From Candidatus Magasanikiibacteriota bacterium (GTDB lineage Bacteria > Patescibacteriota > Patescibacteriia > Magasanikbacterales > GWA2-37-8), in the NCBI GenBank assembly GCA_017991415.1, contig JAGOQR010000003.1, positions 108,279-172,278 on the forward strand: a stretch of 64,000 bases of DNA, written 5' to 3'. Position numbers and translations under genes: made by a program. Below, in pieces: positions 20,213-31,119 of this stretch. Numbering within the stretch: position 1 is the stretch's first letter; every line of letters starts with the position of its first letter. The notes below the pieces were generated by a model. The model was not told the DNA's origin and ran no database searches. It was given only the letters and a program-made list of their open reading frames with translations.

Positions 20213-20713
20213 CTAAACAGAAGCTGGAACTTCGCATTTGAACTTTTTTTCTATACTTTTGGTAAGTAAATGAAGTGAAAGAAGTAAAAGAAAAAAACTT
20301 ATAATTTTTATTTCCATACCCTGAAGAGGAAGAGACATGAGTCCAAGTGGGGCGCCAAAAATTGCCAAGAAAGGAGCGCCGCATGTAGCGCATCCAGAAA
20401 CTGCTACGTTAGCTAATGTTCCGCCAACACTAGCAATGGCATGTGAGGCGTTTTTTTGTGCCTTCATAATATCGTGACGGAAAACAATAAGAGCTAGATA
20501 GACACCAAAAAATAAAGAAATACAAAAACTAAGGAGGAGTGAAGCTGCAGTGAAGAAAAATCCATCCATCTCTATAAGAACAAAAATGCTTTTAAAGGCC
20601 ACGTCTGCAATGGTAAGGTAATAAGAAAGCGCTTCCAAAATAACCGTAGCCACAATTGCAATAATGGCATATTTTTTTCTTTTTAAAATGGGAATGGCTA
20701 TCTCTGTAACCAT
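20213..20713 (-). CDS. Hypothetical polytopic membrane protein with a membrane-embedded CxxC (SGCATCGAP).
   Basis: 4-5 predicted TM segments. Last gene of the minus-strand Cys-motif operon. Confidence 0.4.
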   Translation of the reverse strand: MVTEIAIPILKRKKYAIIAIVATVILEALSYYLTIADVAFKSIFVLIEMDGFFFTAASLLLSFCISLFFGVYLALIVFRHDIMKAQKNASHAIASVGGTLANVAVSGCATCGAPFLAIFGAPLGLMSLPLQGMEIKIISFFLLLLSLHLLTKSIEKKFKCEVPASV

Positions 20714-20715
20714 AG

Positions 20716-21555
20716 TTATGATTGGGTTTGATTTTGAGCAGGAGGAACGATAACTTTATTTGTAGAAAGGTTTTTATAGGTCCCCATAAGAGATAAGTTT
20801 GTAAAGATGTATGTGCCGTCACTTGCGATAGTGCCAACATCAGTCCAAGCTTGTTTTAAGCTGGGATATTCTCCAGTGTCTCCAGTTAGAATAAAAGTTG
20901 GAACAAGAGTTATCTTGTATTTGTTAAGTAAGGCCCTACCTGCAGCAGATTTTGAATCTAATACGTTAGGAGTGGTATTAATACCAAAATTATTTTTTAA
21001 AATTGTTTCATGTTGGGTAACGTCGTAGCATTCGGTGCAGGTAATATCGGTGAGTAGTGTGAGGCCAACCCTTCCCTTTACTTCACCAGTTTCAGAAAGA
21101 GAATATGGCGCGCCAACTTGTCTAAATATAAATGTATCATTGGAGATATCCCCTGTTTTGGAAAAAACATCAGCAAGAGTGGCTACTTTATTTAATTCAC
21201 CCTTTAAAATAAAAGTAGGAAGTTTTTGTATAGCAAACTGTTTGATGAGCTCCTTACCTTCTTCGCTTGTTTTGTCTACATTTTTTTGTGAGTCAATTTT
21301 TACATTTTCTTTTTTGATGTAGTTAAGTACAGGATTGATATCAAAACAGTCTTTGCATGAATTGTCGGTAATAGTAATAAGTTCGAGGTTAGCAGGTCGG
21401 TTAGCTTCGGCAGCCTCGGCTATTTTTTTATTAGCTAAAGAGTTTGTTCGTATAAAAAAAGTAATAACAATTGCTCCGCTAATAAGCATAGCTACAAAAA
21501 TACCAACCAGAAACCAATAGTTAATTTTTATTTCGCTCGCAGGTTGTTCGTTCAT
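20716..21555 (-). CDS. Membrane-anchored protein with two tandem thioredoxin-fold-like domains, each with a CxxC (SCKDC, TCTEC) and an LPTFIL cis-Pro-like motif.
   Basis: N-terminal TM. Internal duplication: ITDNSCKDCFD...LPTFILKG and LTDITCTECYD...VPTFILTG. Confidence 0.5.
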   Translation of the reverse strand: MNEQPASEIKINYWFLVGIFVAMLISGAIVITFFIRTNSLANKKIAEAAEANRPANLELITITDNSCKDCFDINPVLNYIKKENVKIDSQKNVDKTSEEGKELIKQFAIQKLPTFILKGELNKVATLADVFSKTGDISNDTFIFRQVGAPYSLSETGEVKGRVGLTLLTDITCTECYDVTQHETILKNNFGINTTPNVLDSKSAAGRALLNKYKITLVPTFILTGDTGEYPSLKQAWTDVGTIASDGTYIFTNLSLMGTYKNLSTNKVIVPPAQNQTQS

Positions 21556-21597
21556 AGTAAGTATTTAAAGTTTCTGGTTTAGATTTGTGGTATTAGT

Positions 21598-21867
21598 TTA
21601 ACAGCCACCCACCATGTCTGGAAGGGCTTCAAGAGAATTGTTTTGGGGCACACCAGTAGAAGCGTTTACATCACTACCTTTTAATTTATTAAATATTGTT
21701 ATAGAAGCAGCCATTTGTCCGAGTGAAACGAGGGTAAGTACACCAAGAACTGCAGTAACTAAAATATTATTCCAAGAGAGAGTTTTTTTGGCTGGATCGT
21801 TAAGTTTTGAGCTAATCTCGTTTTTTATGGAATCGAGTGGAGATGATGGAGGATTTTGTTCAGTCAT
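21598..21867 (-). CDS. Small single-pass membrane protein ending in ...ALPDMVGGC.
   Basis: 89 aa, central TM, extreme C-terminal GGC. Confidence 0.4.
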   Translation of the reverse strand: MTEQNPPSSPLDSIKNEISSKLNDPAKKTLSWNNILVTAVLGVLTLVSLGQMAASITIFNKLKGSDVNASTGVPQNNSLEALPDMVGGC

Positions 21868-21901
21868 ATATTTATATAAATAATTTAAGTTAGGTACATT
21901 T

Positions 21902-22678
21902 TTAGCAGCCGCCTACCATGCTCGGTGCGTTTTCAATATCAGAAGGTAGTGGTGCAGAACCTGCGCTTGTGGCACCATCATATTTTGGAATTTTTACATT
22001 TAGCAGTAGAGAAGCGATGTCAGGAGTGTACGTACCGCTTTTTAGCTGGGTAGACATTTTTTGTACCATTTGTTTTGGAAAATAGCGGCTCTTCCAAATA
22101 GCGAGTTCTTTTAAAATTTCATCGTCAGAATATGTTGAGCCGTGATTTTTTATCAAGTATGCCGCTAAACCCCTCATTGCTTGAGAGTGGGCGCAGCCAC
22201 AAGCAGCGCTGCCATCTTTAAAGATGATGGATTCTGCTCCGCAACAAAACTCGCAGGATACTTTGAGAACAATTTTAATGTATCGTTGTTGCTCTTCGGC
22301 AGATAAATTTAGTTTTTTTCGACCATAATCTGGGTCGTATTGTTTCATAGTATCTATTGCAGGCTGAACACCGTCGTAGGTTACGTTTAATTCTTTACCA
22401 TACACGGTCGGGACACCTGTCATAAATACGAGTTTTACGGCATCTTCGGCAAGATTTCCCGAGAGGTTTGTGCCGCCTTTAACAATTTTTTGAAATTGAA
22501 GAGTGAGAGCGGCTAGAGCGCTATCATCGTTTAAACCAACAGCTTTTTTTGTGTTGGCGAGCAGTATCTGGTTAGAAATTGTACTAATGGTTAATAATCC
22601 CAATAAAACTAGGTTGAAGGTGGAAAGGTTCTTGTTCTTAACAAAGTTGATTTCGCCAAGTTTTTTTGGGAATTGCAT
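21902..22678 (-). CDS. Secreted Cys-rich protein (SCEFCCGAESIIFKDGSAACGCAH cluster) ending in ...APSMVGGC.
   Basis: Signal peptide, 6-Cys cluster, C-terminal GGC. Confidence 0.4.
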   Translation of the reverse strand: MQFPKKLGEINFVKNKNLSTFNLVLLGLLTISTISNQILLANTKKAVGLNDDSALAALTLQFQKIVKGGTNLSGNLAEDAVKLVFMTGVPTVYGKELNVTYDGVQPAIDTMKQYDPDYGRKKLNLSAEEQQRYIKIVLKVSCEFCCGAESIIFKDGSAACGCAHSQAMRGLAAYLIKNHGSTYSDDEILKELAIWKSRYFPKQMVQKMSTQLKSGTYTPDIASLLLNVKIPKYDGATSAGSAPLPSDIENAPSMVGGC

Positions 22679-22696
22679 AGAGTATGGGATTAAAGA

Positions 22697-23527
22697 TTAG
22701 CCGCCACAGCCACCTGCAGCTGTGTCTTGTGTTAAACCGGTTCCAAAGCCAGGTTGAGGCGATGCCAAAGCCAAGGTTTGCCCGCATTCGGCGGGTGCGT
22801 TGGTAAATGATGCGCAAATTGCGTCTTTTAAGGCATTTGGTGTACGGGCAGCTTCAACCTGAGCACCGTTAATTACGAGTGTCGGAGAACCTTGAACACC
22901 GTATTTGTCATTTAAATCTTGATGGATTGGGTATATTGGGTATCTGCCACTGAGCCAGGTTGATTGGTCGTTATATTTATCCATTATACCAAACTGTTTA
23001 TTCGTTTTGTCAATACAGTTAGTCAATGATTTTTCGTTGAGACCAGCTTGTTTTAGACAGGAAGCGCTGTTTTGGGTAGAAGCATAACAGCTTAGGTAAG
23101 AGAAATACTTATCTTTGTCTTGCTCTTGGGCACAATATTGTTTTGTGTTCTCTTCTACTTCTTCTTTGCCGTGCATGGCGTAGGAAACAAATCGGATATC
23201 TATATCAGCTTTATTTTTTAAAAGATCATAGGCAGGTATGAGTGCCTTTTCCATTTGCAAGCCGTATGGGCAGTTGGCCATAACAAATAGTTCTACCTTT
23301 GGTTTATCGCTTTTTATAATGTTAGTTGGAACAGCGGTCGGTGCTGTATCGATAGCTTGTTGGGTTGTAGCTTGGTTTGCGGTATATGTTTGTGTAGCAC
23401 TCTCGCTAAAATTTTTTTGAGTTAATAAGAACGGGATAGTAATAGCGCAGGCTATAATTGCTGAAGCGCCCAAGCCAGTTATAAGTCCAAACACGAAACC
23501 TTGTTTTGCTGTTAAGTTTTCTAGCAT
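22697..23527 (-). CDS. Membrane-anchored DsbA/thioredoxin-like protein with a monothiol CPYG active-site variant and 8 further Cys, ending in ...AAGGCGG.
   Basis: N-terminal TM. VMANCPYG at the CxxC position of DsbA-like folds. C-terminal GGCGG. Confidence 0.45.
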   Translation of the reverse strand: MLENLTAKQGFVFGLITGLGASAIIACAITIPFLLTQKNFSESATQTYTANQATTQQAIDTAPTAVPTNIIKSDKPKVELFVMANCPYGLQMEKALIPAYDLLKNKADIDIRFVSYAMHGKEEVEENTKQYCAQEQDKDKYFSYLSCYASTQNSASCLKQAGLNEKSLTNCIDKTNKQFGIMDKYNDQSTWLSGRYPIYPIHQDLNDKYGVQGSPTLVINGAQVEAARTPNALKDAICASFTNAPAECGQTLALASPQPGFGTGLTQDTAAGGCGG

Positions 23528-23639
23528 AGAAAAATATTATTTAATAATACTACTACATATTGTAGTAGGATAATTAAAATTTGTCAAAAGTCGTTTTATC
23601 CACAAGTGTTACAACTGTAAAAACTAATTTTAGTTCGTA

Positions 23640-24695
23640 TTAATTTTTTAAATTCTTAAGGTATTGAACAGATTTTGTACACCCAATTTTACTTGTATGA
23701 TAGATTTTATCTGCACATTTTGTCCAAGCATTATTGCATTGCTCAATATAAATTTTATCGGCACAGCTGGATTTGGAATATGTTTCTTGGGCACGCGCTT
23801 GTTGTGTATTTATTTTTGAAGTAAAAAATAAAACTATACAGAGGGCTACAACTATACCAAAAATTGTTTGTAAAATCTCTCTCTTAAAAGACGGTTTGTA
23901 ATTATTTTGGCTTAATGCCAAAATCCTCTCCTCTGTTATTTGGCTAAAGTAGGAAACAGCAAGCTCTTTTTGGATAATAGTTTTTTCTTCCATGTCTAAA
24001 ATTTTCCCCATCGCAGAAGCAAGGTGACTTTTTTCTTTAAAGTTATTTGTCGCCAATTCGTCGGCGGCCATTTCGGAAAATGATAAATATTTTTTAGTTA
24101 GGCTTTGGATACCTGGAATAAAGCTAAAGCCACTCAAAAATTTTATACACAACAATCTGGCTGGTTCTTGTGTTAATAAGTGGTGCGTCTCGTGGAGTAA
24201 AACAGCCTGCAGTTCGGTATAGGTAAGTGTCTGTACAACAGAAGAAGAAATATAGATTTGAGGGTTTTTTAGTCCATGACAAAAAATGAAAGGGCGGCTG
24301 GTGTTAATCTCGGTAACATTACCATTAATACCAATGGTATTTGCCACCTGCTCTAGTTTTGCAGAAGTTTTGACAAAGTTTATTTTTTGCAGGTTTATAA
24401 ATCGTTGTGTTTTTTTGATAGAAATAATTGTTTTGAAAAAAGCAACTAGAAAGCTTGCTATTATGGTAATACCCAGCAAGATAATAATTCCCGTAAATAA
24501 GGAAGAGTTGGGAGAAGATGAAATTTGGCAACCACAGGCTGACTGAACTCGGTTAATTGCGAGCTGACCTAAAAACGCAAAGGAAAAGCTATATATTTTA
24601 TAAAAAAAAGTTCCAAATAGAATAGTTAACGCTATGGTGAGCACGGCAATCTGAGCAAAAAGCCAATTAGATTTTTGGCGTAAGTTAAAAGCCAT
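23640..24695 (-). CDS. M56-family (BlaR1/MecR1-like) membrane metalloprotease with a Cys-rich C-terminal tail and no penicillin-binding sensor domain.
   Basis: 4 TM segments. HExxH zinc site (LHETHHL). C-terminal tail with 4 Cys (SSCADKIYIEQCNNAWTKCADKIYHTSKIGC). Directly downstream of a BlaI-type repressor. Confidence 0.65.
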   Translation of the reverse strand: MAFNLRQKSNWLFAQIAVLTIALTILFGTFFYKIYSFSFAFLGQLAINRVQSACGCQISSSPNSSLFTGIIILLGITIIASFLVAFFKTIISIKKTQRFINLQKINFVKTSAKLEQVANTIGINGNVTEINTSRPFIFCHGLKNPQIYISSSVVQTLTYTELQAVLLHETHHLLTQEPARLLCIKFLSGFSFIPGIQSLTKKYLSFSEMAADELATNNFKEKSHLASAMGKILDMEEKTIIQKELAVSYFSQITEERILALSQNNYKPSFKREILQTIFGIVVALCIVLFFTSKINTQQARAQETYSKSSCADKIYIEQCNNAWTKCADKIYHTSKIGCTKSVQYLKNLKN

Positions 24696-24698
24696 ACC

Positions 24699-25085
24699 TT
24701 ATTTGATTTTTTTTAATCTTTTTCTCCATTCAGCTGATTTTTTAAAATTACCAGCTTCTACAATATCGATAAATCGAGCGACTGCCACTTCGCCACAGTT
24801 TTTTATTAAGTTTTTTATTACTTGTTCAGAAATTTTATCTAAAAATTTTTCTTTGCTTTGAGCGGGAGAGTAAATATAGGAACCGTTTTCGTGTAAGCGA
24901 CGATTGAGAACACCTTTGGTGTGTAAGCGAGACATAATAGTCATGACAGTGGTGTAGGCAATTTCTTTTTTTGTTTTGAGTTTGTCAAAAATTAAACGCA
25001 CCGAAGCATTTTGTTCCTTCCAGATTATCTGCATGATTTCTTCTTCGAGGGTGCCTAAAGAGGCAGAAATATTTTTCATAAACAA
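24699..25085 (-). CDS. BlaI/MecI/CopY-family transcriptional repressor.
   Basis: 128 aa winged-helix N-terminus (TVMTIMSRLHTKGVL). First gene of the operon, paired with the M56 peptidase. Confidence 0.75.
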   Translation of the reverse strand: MFMKNISASLGTLEEEIMQIIWKEQNASVRLIFDKLKTKKEIAYTTVMTIMSRLHTKGVLNRRLHENGSYIYSPAQSKEKFLDKISEQVIKNLIKNCGEVAVARFIDIVEAGNFKKSAEWRKRLKKIK

Positions 25086-25365
25086 AAAAATAATTTATAC
25101 TACAACGTGTAGTATAGCATACAATAAAAAAAACACGCAAGCTATGCGGTTAATGAGGCGATTTTAATTTTATTAGGGTGGCGACGAACACTTGAGTAGT
25201 GTTCGTCGCCGAAGATGTTGCGGGTTGAGCCGAGCCGCTTGTTCAGCGGAAGTTGGCTGTAGCTGCAGACTTCTTCATCGTAGCAGTTCGCCACGAGCGT
25301 GGTTGCCGTCGATCGGAAGGATCGTCGGGGTCAGGCTGTGACGAACTCGTCGACCTGGCGCCGGC

Positions 25366-25653
25366 TCAGATGCCGCCGCGCCGCCAGGGCACGAAGTCGC
25401 CGCCGGCGCGGATCAGCTCGTCGCCGGTCAGGGTCTTGTCGGGGTCCGCCGCGCCGCCGTTGAGCTCGGCCTTGGTGCCGTCGCCCGGGGTGACCTGGTC
25501 GCTGTCACCGATCTGGGTGTTGGGGGTGTCGCCGAACAGCACGGTCGGCGCGTCGGGCAGCGACTGGCCGGTCTCGGTGTTGGGGGCGATGGTCGGCGGC
25601 ATGTTGGTGCCGGACGAAATGTGGAGGCTGGCGTCGGATGCGGGTGACTGCAT
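25366..25653 (-). CDS. Small high-GC ORF (95 aa, MQSPASDASLHISSGTNMPP...GDFVPWRRGGI) with actinobacterial-style C-ending codons. Function unknown.
   Basis: Nearly every codon ends in C (ACC, GGC, GAC, ATC, CTG). AAAGGA Shine-Dalgarno 5 nt upstream of the ATG. The overlapping plus-strand frame has less typical G-ending codons. Confidence 0.4.
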   Translation of the reverse strand: MQSPASDASLHISSGTNMPPTIAPNTETGQSLPDAPTVLFGDTPNTQIGDSDQVTPGDGTKAELNGGAADPDKTLTGDELIRAGGDFVPWRRGGI

Positions 25654-25920
25654 GGCAGATCCTTTCGGTCGAGTCATGTGCTTAGAGGGAGGCCTAATGG
25701 CCAAGAATCCTCAGAGCTGAGGAAGATTATATGCTAAGTTTAGCTTTTTGTCAATAGTCGAGGTTGTAAAACAGTGTCTTAAGTAAGTTTGGTAAAAATA
25801 AAACTACGCCCGTACAAGCGTAGTTTTATATATTTTAAAATAAATAGGTGGAGAGCTCGAACGAGAATGTTCGAGCTCTCCGTGGATGGCCCTGGTCGAC
25901 TTGATGTCGTCCTGAGCAGT

Positions 25921-26127
25921 TCAAGGGGTCTTGGTCATGTCCGTTCGGTTGTTCCTAGTTCCATCGCCGCCGTGGTCGATCTGATCCTGTGTGAGGCGGT
26001 AGTGCTCAGGAACGATTGGATCTGGCGGAACGCGATACATCAGTCCATCATCGCCATCGTAGAGGGTTCCAGGCTTGGCGAAGGTCGGTGGTGGTCGAAC
26101 ACTAACCATCGATGATGTGGCAATCAT
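25921..26127 (-). CDS. Small mid-GC ORF (68 aa, MIATSSMVSVRPPPTFAKPG...). Function unknown.
   Basis: AAAGGGGA Shine-Dalgarno 7 nt upstream of the ATG. Followed by two perfect hairpins. Confidence 0.3.
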   Translation of the reverse strand: MIATSSMVSVRPPPTFAKPGTLYDGDDGLMYRVPPDPIVPEHYRLTQDQIDHGGDGTRNNRTDMTKTP

Positions 26128-28957: not shown

Positions 28958-29299
28958 ATGTCTACCAAACAATCTACGATAGATTATATTTTAGACCAGC
29001 TCTCTTTTTTAAGAGATGTCACTGCTCGTAAAATGTTTGGCGAATATGCGCTGTACTATAATGGTAAGGTTGTGGCACTTGTGTGTGACAACACCCTGTA
29101 TGTAAAAATTACTGAACCAGGTAAAGAGTTTGTTGGGGCATATTATAAAGAAGGCTTCGCATATCCAGGGGCCAAGCCATCGATGGTAATTGATGAAGAT
29201 AATCTTGAAAATCAAGAGTGGTTAAGTGAGCTTGTAATGATAACTGAAAAAAACTTACCAATGCCAAAGATAAAGGTGAAAAAGAAAACGATAAAATAA
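28958..29299 (+). CDS. TfoX/Sxy N-terminal-domain protein (competence-regulator family).
   Basis: MFGEYALYYNGKVVALVCDNTLYVK matches the TfoX_N fold signature. 113 aa. Confidence 0.7.
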   Translation: MSTKQSTIDYILDQLSFLRDVTARKMFGEYALYYNGKVVALVCDNTLYVKITEPGKEFVGAYYKEGFAYPGAKPSMVIDEDNLENQEWLSELVMITEKNLPMPKIKVKKKTIK

Positions 29300-29300
29300 T

Positions 29301-29327
29301 TTATCTACTACACAGTGTAGTAGATAA
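29301..29327. repeat. Perfect 13-bp-arm palindrome TTATCTACTACAC-A-GTGTAGTAGATAA, abutting the tfoX stop at the boundary of a GC-rich segment.
   Basis: Exact inverted repeat with no T-run. Confidence 0.6.
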
Positions 29328-29499: not shown

Positions 29500-30402
29500 C
29501 TACAAGACCAGCATTGCTCGAAATAGTGCAGCCAGTGGCGGCGGCAAATATCCGAGGTCAGGCGCATCCTGGTGCAAATTGGTCTCTGCTGGCAGCATGG
29601 CTATTATCTGGGCTCCCAGGTTTGCAATCTCCTGATTGGCGTTTTCAGGATATTGCCTTCTTAGCATCCAGAGTTCGGTCTGGCCGAACTCGTTTCCAGT
29701 TCGAAGCATAATACACTCGCCTTCGTCAGACTCTGGTGGTCCGCACGAGTGGTCGAGGTAGTTGTCTCCGCAATAGTGATGCGAGAAGGCAGTGCACCAG
29801 CCGTTGCCATCTTCTGGATTGGGACAAAGGTGTCCCGCCTCGTGCCCAATGATTGTTGGGTGAATGAGGAAGATGGTCTTACCAGTGGCGTACGAAGCCA
29901 GGCCGTTGTAGCCGACGCTGACAATGATGTCAGCGTCTTCTCCAGTGAGCGTGACCCCTTGGCCAGCCTTGTTGAACACAACGGTGAAGTTGTATCCAGG
30001 GTAGACTGCTTCCACGTACCTTTCCAGTAGGCTACGGAAGGCCTCTTCTTTTTCTGGCGTCCAGCCGTCTTGGAAAAACGCGTCGCGTCGGCCAGTTCCG
30101 CCGTAGTAGGTGACGAGCACCTTGATCTCGGCGTCCTGGTTCCTACAGCGAGCGTGGATGTAGGCTAGGGCGTAGGAACCTTGCTGGTCTTTCAGCCAGG
30201 CTTGCAAGACTGGCGAAAGTTGAGAGTTTTCGATCTCGGCTTCGTATCCCGAAAGGATGAAGTTCCGAACGTTCGGATCTTGACACCGGTCAGGAGCGGC
30301 AAGCTCGCCAGCGTCAGGCAAACTTGGCTCTTCAACAGGGCTGCACCCGTTGCTGATAAGAGCCAGAAATACGAACAGAACCAAAAAGGCCCTGTAGCTC
30401 AT
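29500..30402 (-). CDS. Secreted, probably lipid-anchored HExxH zinc metallopeptidase encoded in GC-rich (about 55%) DNA.
   Basis: AAGGAG Shine-Dalgarno 7 nt before the ATG at 30402. Signal peptide MSYRAFLVLFVFLALISNGCS. IIGHEAGH HExxH motif. Cys-rich C-terminal region. Local GC far above the genome average. Confidence 0.55.
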   Translation of the reverse strand: MSYRAFLVLFVFLALISNGCSPVEEPSLPDAGELAAPDRCQDPNVRNFILSGYEAEIENSQLSPVLQAWLKDQQGSYALAYIHARCRNQDAEIKVLVTYYGGTGRRDAFFQDGWTPEKEEAFRSLLERYVEAVYPGYNFTVVFNKAGQGVTLTGEDADIIVSVGYNGLASYATGKTIFLIHPTIIGHEAGHLCPNPEDGNGWCTAFSHHYCGDNYLDHSCGPPESDEGECIMLRTGNEFGQTELWMLRRQYPENANQEIANLGAQIIAMLPAETNLHQDAPDLGYLPPPLAALFRAMLVL

Positions 30403-30738
30403 AGTTTTGACTCCTTGGTTGTCAGTTGCTTGTTTTTTACTATAAATAAGCCATTTTGTCAATGGTTTCTAGAAGGAAAATTTGGGGATAACTCTGTGTA
30501 TAAGTGTGTGAATATGGGGATATTTGTATACACTAATGTATACAAAATTATCCTCTTTTATTTTTTAAAATAGGTTATTTTAGCTCTTTTTCTCTGTTTA
30601 ATCCATATTTTTGATAAAAACTTTAATATCCAGAGTGGTAACTAGCTTGTTATTATTGTTAGGTCTGTAGTATTTAGGACTTTAGATGCATACGGAATTT
30701 TGCAAGATCTTTAATTAGGTTAAGTTTAATGTTAATTG

Positions 30739-30753: not shown

Positions 30754-31119
30754 TTATCTGTAGTGTTTATATAAAAAATTGAGCTTACTTTCAAAATACT
30801 TATTTTTCCAGTTTTCAAATTGGATTTTTTTATTTCCAAACAATCGGCCATCAAATATAGGTATGATTGTATTTTCAATAGTGGATCTCCTTCGTATCAT
30901 CAAAAGAACATAATGGCGACCTTGGTGCGTATATTCATATATTTTTTCGGTTAGACCCATTTTGATTTTTATCATTTCAAATAAAGGGCGTTCAATGGCT
31001 TGCATTTTAAGTTGAAAGACAGGTTGCTCAACCTTACCCTGTTTTACCCAAATAAAAGCACCTTCTCCGATTATGAGTCCTGAAATAAGGTCTAAAGAGG
31101 GTAGGGCTGATTCGTTCAT
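30754..31119 (-). CDS. LAGLIDADG-family homing-endonuclease-like protein (single-motif, I-CreI-like size), free-standing.
   Basis: LISGLIIGEGAF matches the LAGLIDADG motif. 121 aa. Confidence 0.6.
   Translation of the reverse strand: MNESALPSLDLISGLIIGEGAFIWVKQGKVEQPVFQLKMQAIERPLFEMIKIKMGLTEKIYEYTHQGRHYVLLMIRRRSTIENTIIPIFDGRLFGNKKIQFENWKNKYFESKLNFLYKHYR

Follow-up and report, generated by a model that had tools for sequence, protein, structure and literature searches.

The repressor/protease pairs BlaI/BlaR1 and MecI/MecR1 of Staphylococcus and Bacillus and the pair BlaI (Rv1846c)/BlaR of Mycobacterium tuberculosis share a design in which a Penicillinase_R-type repressor and an M56 protease with an HExxH motif are encoded side by side and are autoregulated. 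In BlaI/BlaR1 and MecI/MecR1, TACA/TGTA dyads lie over the promoters and the repressor has a phenylalanine at its cleavage site; in 2009, Sala et al. reportedly described the M. tuberculosis BlaI motif as a dyad of TAC-type hexamers separated by N5. In Synechocystis sp. PCC 6803, a BlaI/M56 pair named PetR/PetP switches between plastocyanin and cytochrome c6 in a copper-dependent manner; the degradation of PetR needs PetP and copper, and PetR also activates a gene (bioRxiv 10.1101/2020.07.31.226407). CopY/TcrY of Firmicutes recognize a TACAnnTGTA-type box (PMC11672702). Here we describe a locus in a 64,000-nt stretch of contig JAGOQR010000003.1 of a Candidatus Magasanikiibacteriota bacterium (this whole stretch is called the window), in which a BlaI/M56 pair precedes five genes for cysteine-motif envelope proteins. 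Gene linkage in relatives and operators at two promoters, two independent lines of evidence, indicate that the seven genes act as one system.

By analogy, this system seems to work most like PetR/PetP and to differ from it in its cysteine-based outer sensor, its effectors and its hosts. In both cases a BlaI-type repressor is combined with an M56 protease without a penicillin-binding sensor, and the PetR operator core GAC-N5-GTC, an inverted repeat with a 5-nt spacer, is comparable to TAC-N5-GTA at the present locus. However, the PetR/PetP regulon consists of photosynthetic electron carriers and two small proteins, while the present one consists of five cysteine-motif envelope proteins, and the authors of the PetP work suggest methionine residues for copper binding, while the sensor described here is based on cysteines. 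With BlaI/BlaR1 and MecI/MecR1 the locus appears to share the cleavage-site phenylalanine and the type of dyad, which here reads TACTACA...TGTAGTA; unlike them, it has neither a transpeptidase-like sensor nor a beta-lactamase or PBP2a target, its effectors are thiol proteins, and it occurs in archaea as well. CopY/TcrY have the same DNA-binding family and box logic as our repressor, but CopY senses copper directly via a C-terminal CxCx4CxC motif, which our repressor lacks, and involves no protease. An interpretation made earlier from the letters and their translations (the sequence-only reading) had held that BlaI/M56 paradigms control just beta-lactamase, PBP2a or copper ATPases. This is too narrow, since PetR/PetP controls plastocyanin and cytochrome c6. 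In agreement with the same reading, which did not recognize the module as a described system, our literature searches turned up no description of a BlaI/M56 system of this kind in the Candidate Phyla Radiation (CPR). The type of circuit is known; what is new is its sensor, its families of effectors, the motif of the swinging arm and its spread over CPR bacteria and DPANN archaea.

All seven open reading frames (ORFs) of the proposed operon are present; they lie tightly spaced and in the same direction on the minus strand and span positions 20213-25085, with intergenic gaps from g1 to g7 of 3, 112, 18, 34, 42 and 2 nt. We use g1 to g7 for the genes in the window and G3 to G7 for the corresponding families across relatives. 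The features are:

24699-25085, minus strand: g1, BlaI/MecI/CopY-family winged-helix repressor, 128 aa (126 aa from the ATG at 25079)
23640-24695, minus strand: g2, M56 (BlaR1-like) zinc metalloprotease, 351 aa, three predicted transmembrane helices
22697-23527, minus strand: g3, GILT/DsbA-like thioredoxin-fold protein, 276 aa, membrane-anchored, CPYG, tail GGCGG
21902-22678, minus strand: g4, 258 aa, N-terminal transmembrane anchor, helical ectodomain, Cys/His cluster, disordered tail
21598-21867, minus strand: g5, single-pass membrane protein, 89 aa, tail ending LPDMVGGC
20716-21555, minus strand: g6, membrane-anchored, two tandem thioredoxin-like modules with a CxxC in each
20213-20713, minus strand: g7, polytopic membrane protein, 166 aa, ~4 transmembrane helices, mid-membrane CxxC
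25098-25114, no strand: Operator 1, perfect TACTAC-N5-GTAGTA dyad in the blaI promoter
23551-23567, no strand: Operator 2, perfect TACTAC-N5-GTAGTA dyad over the -10 region of the effector promoter
23559-23587, minus strand: effector promoter P2, TTGACA, 17 nt, TACAAT
29306-29322, no strand: third perfect dyad, 4.2 kb upstream of blaI, a possible further repressor site

The identities first assigned to the repressor, the M56 protease, the DsbA-like protein and the double thioredoxin-fold protein were borne out by Pfam and NCBIfam searches, in which bit scores were judged against the family cut-offs of the models. The repressor g1 matches Penicillinase_R (PF03965) with 87.4 bits (1.1e-24; cut-off 22.6), and its sequence matches in the PDB are M. 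tuberculosis BlaI 2g9w (1.3e-7) and MecI 1sd6/1okr (3e-7). Its start as listed is a TTG, while the ATG two codons further in, at 25079, is the likelier start. In the alignment, the cleavage site N101-F102 of MecI corresponds to R104-F105 of g1, of which F105 is conserved and the preceding arginine is variable. No CopY-type CxC or CxCx4CxC metal motif is present in g1; the single cysteine, C97, is kept in just 10 of 50 homologs, and the match to the CopY_TcrY model TIGR02698 is weak (49.7 bits, cut-off 121.95). Because of the lack of the motif and the low CopY score, we reject direct CopY-type copper sensing by g1. Since F105 is conserved at the position of MecI F102 and the CxC motif is missing, the expected mode of control is proteolysis, as in BlaI/MecI.

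The protease for such a control would be g2, which matches Peptidase_M56 (PF05569) with 39.9 bits (cut-off 31). Its zinc site HETHH is located at residues 168-172, with H168 and H172 invariant in 53 of 53 homologs, and three transmembrane helices flank the protease domain. As initially proposed, the beta-lactam sensor is missing: Pfam and NCBIfam searches of g2 revealed no transpeptidase-like or any other sensor domain, and the blaR1_generic model gave 27.3 bits against a cut-off of 400. The 44 homologs detected are all ~350 aa long and none of them has a penicillin-binding sensor domain; the sensor-transducers BlaR1 and MecR1, by comparison, have such a domain at the C-terminus and a length of ~585 aa, while g2 has 351 aa. 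The database names nevertheless imply an ordinary regulator of beta-lactam resistance: the source name is 'beta-lactamase regulating signal transducer', and the domain matches are to Penicillinase_R and M56. Given the missing sensor domain, an operon without beta-lactamase or penicillin-binding protein, and the occurrence of the module in DPANN archaea, this explanation is effectively refuted and we reject it. To our knowledge, archaea offer no peptidoglycan target for beta-lactams.

In place of a penicillin-binding domain, g2 has six cysteines, two in an A-C54-G-C56 loop and four in a C-terminal tail (positions 311, 320, 327 and 339). C54 is conserved in 46 of 53 homologs and the four cysteines of the tail in about 36 of 53. 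Since the protease domain must face the cytoplasmic repressor, the predicted location of the CGC loop and the cysteine tail is extracytoplasmic, on the other face of the membrane, where the sequence-only reading had also placed the tail. The A-C-G-C of the sensor loop matches an A-C-G-C in the cysteine cluster of G4. The archaeal M56 proteins are shorter and often contain a cysteine pair in the same loop; several of them have just two cysteines overall.

The search for TACTAC-N5-GTAGTA was performed over the 64-kb window and, with at most one mismatch, in relatives. With up to two mismatches, eight sites were found in the window against 2.17 expected, and three of them are perfect. The sequence-only reading had suggested a search for a BlaI/CopY-type dyad at the blaI promoter; a BlaI-type dyad was found there, and a second copy lies on a separate promoter before g3. 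Operator 1 is contained in a longer palindrome, TATACTACA-cgt-TGTAGTATA, at 25096-25116 and overlaps a putative extended -10 region of the blaI promoter (TGcTATACT, 25119-25111, minus strand). Operator 2 overlaps P2, which is located in the 112-nt gap before g3 and is the best sigma-70-like match between 20000 and 25400 (11 of 12 positions). In bacterial loci of relatives, the dyad was detected upstream of blaI in 24 of 31 cases, of G4 in 26 of 41 and of G3 in 5 of 6, while the control genes G5 (0 of 39), G6 (0 of 38) and M56 (0 of 32) had none; these counts depend on the start codons called, and the ORFs of the loci were called mechanically. The layout with one operator at the blaI promoter and one at the effector promoter was found again in relatives, and in one locus (L038) the dyad before G4 is retained though no blaI gene adjoins. 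Archaeal loci have a related dyad, GCTTTACA-N5-TGTAAAGC, in the gap between the divergent genes blaI and G4. Thus, with dyads on the blaI promoter and on the g3 promoter, control of the cysteine-protein genes by the repressor is well supported, and as far as can be judged from sequence g1 very probably controls g3 to g7 directly.

Operator 2 (23550-23568) also scores as a weak terminator-like hairpin with an 8-bp stem and a T-rich tail, right after the stop codon of the M56 gene. It may both terminate the blaI-M56 transcript and act as operator of the effector promoter. The third dyad at 29306-29322 is flanked by the 3' ends of a TfoX_N gene (28958-29299, plus strand) and a lipoprotein gene (29500-30462, minus strand), which converge on it. 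It has no obvious downstream target, and loci L005, L008 and L011 have a site at the equivalent position.

A scan with one genome per species revealed relatives of G4 in 356 genomes; 84 loci were fetched and their ORFs called and clustered. According to the sequence-only reading, downstream genes not conserved together with the regulator pair would have refuted it, but the survey shows that they are: in 28 of 34 bacterial loci with sufficient flank, and in 10 of 26 archaeal ones, both BlaI and M56 are encoded no more than 3.5 kb from G4. The bacterial gene order is nearly always BlaI-M56-(G3)-G4-G5-G6-(G7), while in the archaeal loci with the pair BlaI/M56 is transcribed divergently from G4. 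The gene arrangement is far from chance, as it recurs in dozens of independent genomes. The unit as originally drawn, with the regulator pair and all five cysteine-motif genes, holds in part: the conserved core consists of g1, g2, g4, g5 and g6, often with g7, while G3 is only accessory (8 of 84 loci). According to the submitters' record titles, from which all taxon labels of the survey are taken, the bacterial hosts of G4 are Magasanik-, Buchanan-, Uhr- and Parcubacteria of the CPR and the archaeal hosts are DPANN members, namely Woese-, Micr-, Nano-, Pace- and Iainarchaeota. For loci L005, L007-L009, L012, L014 and others, the record names an 'uncultured Gammaproteobacteria bacterium' or a 'Candidatus Udaeobacter sp.', but they show CPR-type synteny and 58-73% G4 identity to the window; these contigs are probably mislabelled metagenome bins.

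Ten archaeal loci without BlaI/M56 (L054, L056, L057, L062, L066, L067, L073, L076, L077 and L084) harbour a DUF7343 protein directly upstream of G4. It is a membrane-anchored winged-helix protein of ~175 aa without cysteines. In these loci G4 is often duplicated and followed by an HCPIC membrane protein and a 168-aa protein ending with CCGE. In front of the same effector, another membrane-bound regulator thus seems to have taken the place of BlaI/M56.

The effector G4 contains the invariant cluster C142-E-x-C145-C146...C160-G-C162-x-H164 and ends with the tail P-x-M-V-G-G-C258. The five cysteines of the cluster and H164 are found in 79 of 87 sequences and C258 in 85 of 87; the last residues are MVGGC or QVGGC in 81 of 86 members. 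The cysteine cluster of g4 is thus as initially read, but free secretion of the protein is not, since hydropathy gives each of g3 to g6 a single N-terminal membrane anchor (three transmembrane helices were obtained for g2 and about four for g7). Neither g4 nor g5 nor g7 matched a Pfam or NCBIfam family or a PDB sequence. For G4, a Pfam scan of 41 family members at E<=10 and PDB searches by phmmer and by profile also gave nothing; a word-indexed search yielded 406 homologs, all named 'hypothetical' and devoid of Pfam domains, and when 1.84 billion representatives were searched exhaustively with a HMMER profile, just 272 clusters and no bridge to a known superfamily were obtained. By these sequence comparisons, the G4 family is closed.

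In the AlphaFold2 (AF2) model of G4, the core is confident (predicted local distance difference test, pLDDT, >84 for residues 110-220) and the tail is disordered. The sole structural neighbour is CcmH, with a weak resemblance, and no PDB structure was matched by Foldseek at E <= 0.001. When G4 was aligned to CcmH with hhalign, the CxxC after helix 1 fell in the same register, but with a probability of just 2%; for this reason we report CcmH as a structural resemblance alone. The model weakly suggests that G4 is CcmH-like in fold, though not a CcmH. A role in cytochrome c maturation is rejected, and we know of no c-type cytochromes in the CPR and DPANN hosts.

The resemblance to CcmH bears on the possibility that the module responds to oxidant or disulfide stress. 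The outer cysteines of the M56 protein would then form disulfides upon intrusion of oxygen or peroxide and thereby switch on the protease, and the effectors would form a reductive chain from a G7/CcdA-like conduit via G6 to a CcmH-like G4, and this chain would keep single surface cysteines reduced. Such a chain would mirror, by analogy, DsbD/CcdA -> CcmG/ResA -> CcmH. We consider this rather unlikely, although it ranks second among the candidate signals. Apart from CcmH being the only structural neighbour of G4, with the CxxC register in agreement, it is favoured by the thioredoxin-fold proteins G6 (with CxxC) and G3, and by the nature of the hosts, which are anaerobic fermenters with oxidative-stress defences described as 'largely unknown' (PMC8672522). 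It leaves unexplained the Met-x-Gly-Gly-Cys arm and the cluster of five cysteines and one histidine, both of which resemble ligand sets more than a redox pair.

The thioredoxin-fold proteins were largely as first described. The double thioredoxin fold of g6 is supported by a borderline match to Thioredoxin_9 (25.1 bits, cut-off 25) and by matches of other thioredoxin families to module 1; the two halves are duplicates (BLASTP 3e-15), and both CxxC pairs, C67/C70 and C173/C176, are kept in 49 of 54 homologs. The layout is PDO-like, but PDO_seleno_TRX matches weakly (4.4e-4; 19.6 bits, cut-off 185), so that g6 does not qualify as a PDO equivalog. The monothiol DsbA-like protein g3 matches GILT (PF03227) with 28.4 bits (cut-off 22.4), with CPYG replacing CxxC in its active site. 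In g7, as predicted, a mid-membrane motif C108-x-x-C111-G-A-P is invariant, and together with C160, at or near the predicted cytoplasmic C-terminus (hydropathy, positive-inside pattern), all three cysteines are conserved in 31 of 32 homologs. The AF2 model of g7 is poor (pLDDT 63, <50 around the CxxC), and Pfam, NCBIfam and PDB sequence searches revealed no match to CcdA/DsbD_TM, DsbB, VKOR or MerT/MerC. The lack of a detectable relation of G7 to CcdA, DsbB and VKOR weighs against the reductive chain. The layout of G7, with a cysteine pair in a transmembrane helix and a cytoplasmic cysteine, is like that of MerT/MerC (MerF) at the level of the motif, homology being undetectable.

The cysteine at the very C-terminus is not confined to G4. 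In g5, C89 is conserved in 46 of 46 homologs, the C-terminal xVGGC is found in 45 of 45 G5 members, and a small archaeal G5-like family ends the same way (5 of 5), while G3 ends with GGCGG, as the SoxY arm does. A flexible C-terminal Gly-Gly-Cys arm as in G3, G4 and G5 is known from SoxY (GGCGG) and DsrC; the likeness is at the level of the motif alone. SoxY proteins combine the arm with an Ig-like domain, of which g3, g4 and g5 show the tail motif alone and no SoxY domain match, and no protein of the window matched a SoxY, DsrC or Mer family in Pfam and NCBIfam.

These tails raise two further explanations. The cysteine arms could carry sulfur adducts like those of SoxY and DsrC, so that the module would handle sulfane sulfur (persulfide or polysulfide); polysulfide would bridge the sensor cysteines as in CstR- or SqrR-type sensors, and the thioredoxin-like proteins would strip off the sulfur. 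This is distinctly improbable. The exact SoxY-type GGCGG end of G3 and the GGC ends of G4 and G5 speak for it, as does the habitat, which is sulfidic groundwater as inferred from record titles, but the likeness to SoxY stops at the tail, and no SoxY, SoxZ, DsrE or TusA domain was matched. Alternatively, proteins ending with GGC could be covalently joined via the terminal cysteine to a surface structure, a lipid or the host, with G3, G6 and G7 as maturation machinery and BlaI/M56 reporting the envelope status. The extreme conservation of the P-x-MVGGC C-terminus on two different proteins would suit such a biogenesis or attachment role, and so would the restriction of the family to CPR and DPANN, many cultivated members of which are episymbionts attached to hosts. 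However, the conserved core contains no transferase, sortase-like or lipid-modifying enzyme, and a repressor-gated regulation of the stress type would be unusual for housekeeping maturation; with the metal and redox gene context also unexplained, we regard attachment as slightly more doubtful still than sulfane-sulfur handling.

Which stress is involved was judged mainly from the neighbours of G4 in relatives. In 11 loci, a heavy-metal P1B ATPase gene lies no more than 8 kb from G4, in eight of them on the same strand, while ~1 would be expected in the 0.98 Mb of locus DNA if one gene per Mb is assumed (Poisson 8e-9, a rough value). All three P1B ATPases tested score above the cut-off of the copper-translocating subfamily (TIGR01511, 561-629 bits, cut-off 397). 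Fusions of HMA, DsbD_2 and Cupredoxin_1 domains are present in 19 loci. Oxidant stress does not account for why copper-type P1B ATPases and HMA and cupredoxin domains are enriched beside G4. Other neighbours belong to thiol redox chemistry and would fit an oxidant signal: DUF1573 CxC proteins, CcdA/DsbD_TM-like membrane proteins, DsbA and an AhpC/TSA-Redoxin (peroxiredoxin-like) protein, which also gave a weak SCO1 match. The metal-type parts further include a neighbour gene in relatives, distinct from G7, for a small membrane protein whose CC helix resembles that of MerT (weak match, 0.05). Extracytoplasmic rhodanese domains and DUF302 proteins, which would suit sulfane-sulfur handling, occur in the clusters of some relatives, but in few loci, and metal-associated neighbours are commoner. 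The first guess of a redox or metal, possibly copper, stress module fits this mixture of P1B ATPases, HMA, cupredoxin, CcdA-, thioredoxin- and peroxiredoxin-like proteins.

Two extracytoplasmic families with histidine motifs, f0b and f14 (e.g. L040 12820-13290, L001 7930-8430), recur in the clusters. One, with the motif 'DTHS...GGHHRSG', is present in ~35 copies and has a weak DUF5643 match only, and the other, with 'HIHP...HTHD..G.IH', is present in 11 copies and lies between G6 and G7 in several bacterial loci; no Pfam match of either is above cut-off. NCBIfam searches gave no match for the two families, and neither did a PDB search with one of them. They are candidate metal-binding proteins.

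Based on the P1B enrichment, the metal-domain neighbours, the PetR/PetP precedent and the kinship with CopY, we rank copper or another soft metal first among the candidate signals, with somewhat less than even confidence; oxidant or disulfide stress comes second and sulfane sulfur third. All three signals are thiol-reactive and imply the same circuit logic. Several points weigh against copper. The 64-kb window itself holds nothing metal-specific and encodes neither an HMA domain nor a P1B ATPase, and the P1B enrichment in relatives uses an assumed background density. Sites consisting of cysteines only suit redox or persulfide sensing equally well, and thioredoxin folds, CcdA/DsbD_TM-like and peroxiredoxin-like proteins and DsbA, which account for many of the neighbours, belong to the classical thiol-redox repertoire. 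Further, the cysteine layout of the sensor differs between bacteria (CxC plus four cysteines) and archaea (Cx6-7C), so that the two groups may respond to different signals. Finally, little free copper is to be expected in groundwater that is sulfidic and anoxic.

With these points in mind, it is an even call whether the module is a self-contained, proteolysis-gated and thiol-based envelope stress regulon, with copper or a soft metal as its most likely signal. In the resting state, a dimer of g1 would sit on the two TACTAC-N5-GTAGTA operators, over the -10 regions of the blaI-M56 and the g3-g7 promoters. The sensor g2 would expose six cysteines, those of the CGC loop and of the tail, on the outer face, and the occupation or modification of these thiols, most likely by copper(I) or a soft metal, would render the cytoplasmic HExxH domain active. 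The active protease would then cut g1 near R104/F105, at the equivalent of the position where MecI and BlaI are cleaved, and thereby open both promoters. At the cell surface, the induced proteins could act as a thiol relay, whose direction of transfer is put forward tentatively: the flexible C-terminal MVGGC arms of G4 and G5 could capture the metal or a different thiol-reactive species, and the fixed cluster of five cysteines and one histidine on the CcmH-like helical domain of G4 would hold the cargo or pass it onward. G6, with its double thioredoxin, and the GILT-like G3 would keep the relay thiols reduced and repair wrongly oxidized surface cysteines, and G7 with its membrane CxxC and cytoplasmic cysteine would link the relay to the cytoplasm by carrying reducing power or metal.

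It is tempting to go one step further, although this is a speculative and rather doubtful proposal: G4, G5 and G7 might constitute a new extracytoplasmic cysteine-arm relay, from the MVGGC arms via the CxxCC/CxCxH cluster to the membrane CxxC conduit, with Cu(I) or sulfane sulfur as cargo. The M56 protein with its G4-mimicking CGC loop would supervise it, and the cassette of sensor plus relay would have been exchanged between CPR and DPANN.

ScsABCD of Salmonella is an envelope CxxC-protein operon that protects against copper stress and is regulated by Cpx. By analogy, the effector set described here resembles Scs and the series DsbD/CcdA -> CcmG/ResA -> CcmH in its logic, with a conduit for electrons in the membrane, thioredoxin-like proteins both anchored and soluble, and a small cysteine protein. 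Unlike in Scs, regulation is by BlaI/M56 instead of Cpx, and no sequence homology to ScsA-D, DsbD, CcdA or CcmH was detected for g4, g5 and g7.

The surroundings of the locus show some further features. The window has ~37% GC, and polA, holA, rpsT and rmuC are among the neighbouring genes; composition, gene neighbours and nearest relatives agree with a CPR genome close to Candidatus Magasanikbacteria. Directly upstream of the blaI promoter there are two patches of 56-72% GC (25190-25710 and 25870-26125; ~37% GC in the genome), which resemble high-GC coding sequence and contain minus-strand ORFs of 112 and 68 aa. Between them lies an AT-rich piece with a promoter that is perfect, TTGACA-N17-TATAAT, and with a hairpin resembling a terminator (about 25730-25840). 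A known RNA was rejected for this GC-rich stretch, as it had no Rfam match at gathering or E-value thresholds; its fold z-score is just -1.78. GC-rich patches (60-70%) occupy the corresponding place in loci L005-L008 and L011 but are not similar in sequence. A hypervariable gene, acquisition by horizontal transfer or a chimeric assembly could account for the patches. The lipoprotein-like ORF at 29500-30462 (minus strand, 320 aa) contains a HEAGH motif, has no Pfam match and shows 53-56% GC, which is above the genome average; homologs are found at the same place in L005 and L011. At 30754-31119 on the minus strand, there is a free-standing LAGLIDADG_1 homing-endonuclease ORF (121 aa, 4e-9) with no obvious intron or intein host gene.

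The locus is of importance for several reasons. Much of microbial diversity belongs to CPR bacteria and DPANN archaea, for which next to nothing is known about protection of the envelope; their mechanisms against oxidative stress have likewise been described as 'largely unknown' (PMC8672522). Here a compact circuit is offered, with a defined sensor, a repressor, two operators of clear consensus and an effector family, G4, in 356 species-level genomes. Its parts are small and expressible in E. coli, which makes the function of genes from uncultivated organisms directly testable. As a new cysteine-cluster protein with a swinging arm, G4 could represent a new copper- or sulfur-handling fold. With this system, the BlaI/M56 paradigm, so far known for antibiotic sensing and, with PetRP as the only example, for copper, would come to include an envelope sensor based on cysteines that works in bacteria and archaea alike. 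If the proposed relay is true, the cassette would be a shared answer of CPR and DPANN to thiol and metal stress in the envelope, achieved without a respiratory chain, quinones or cytochromes.

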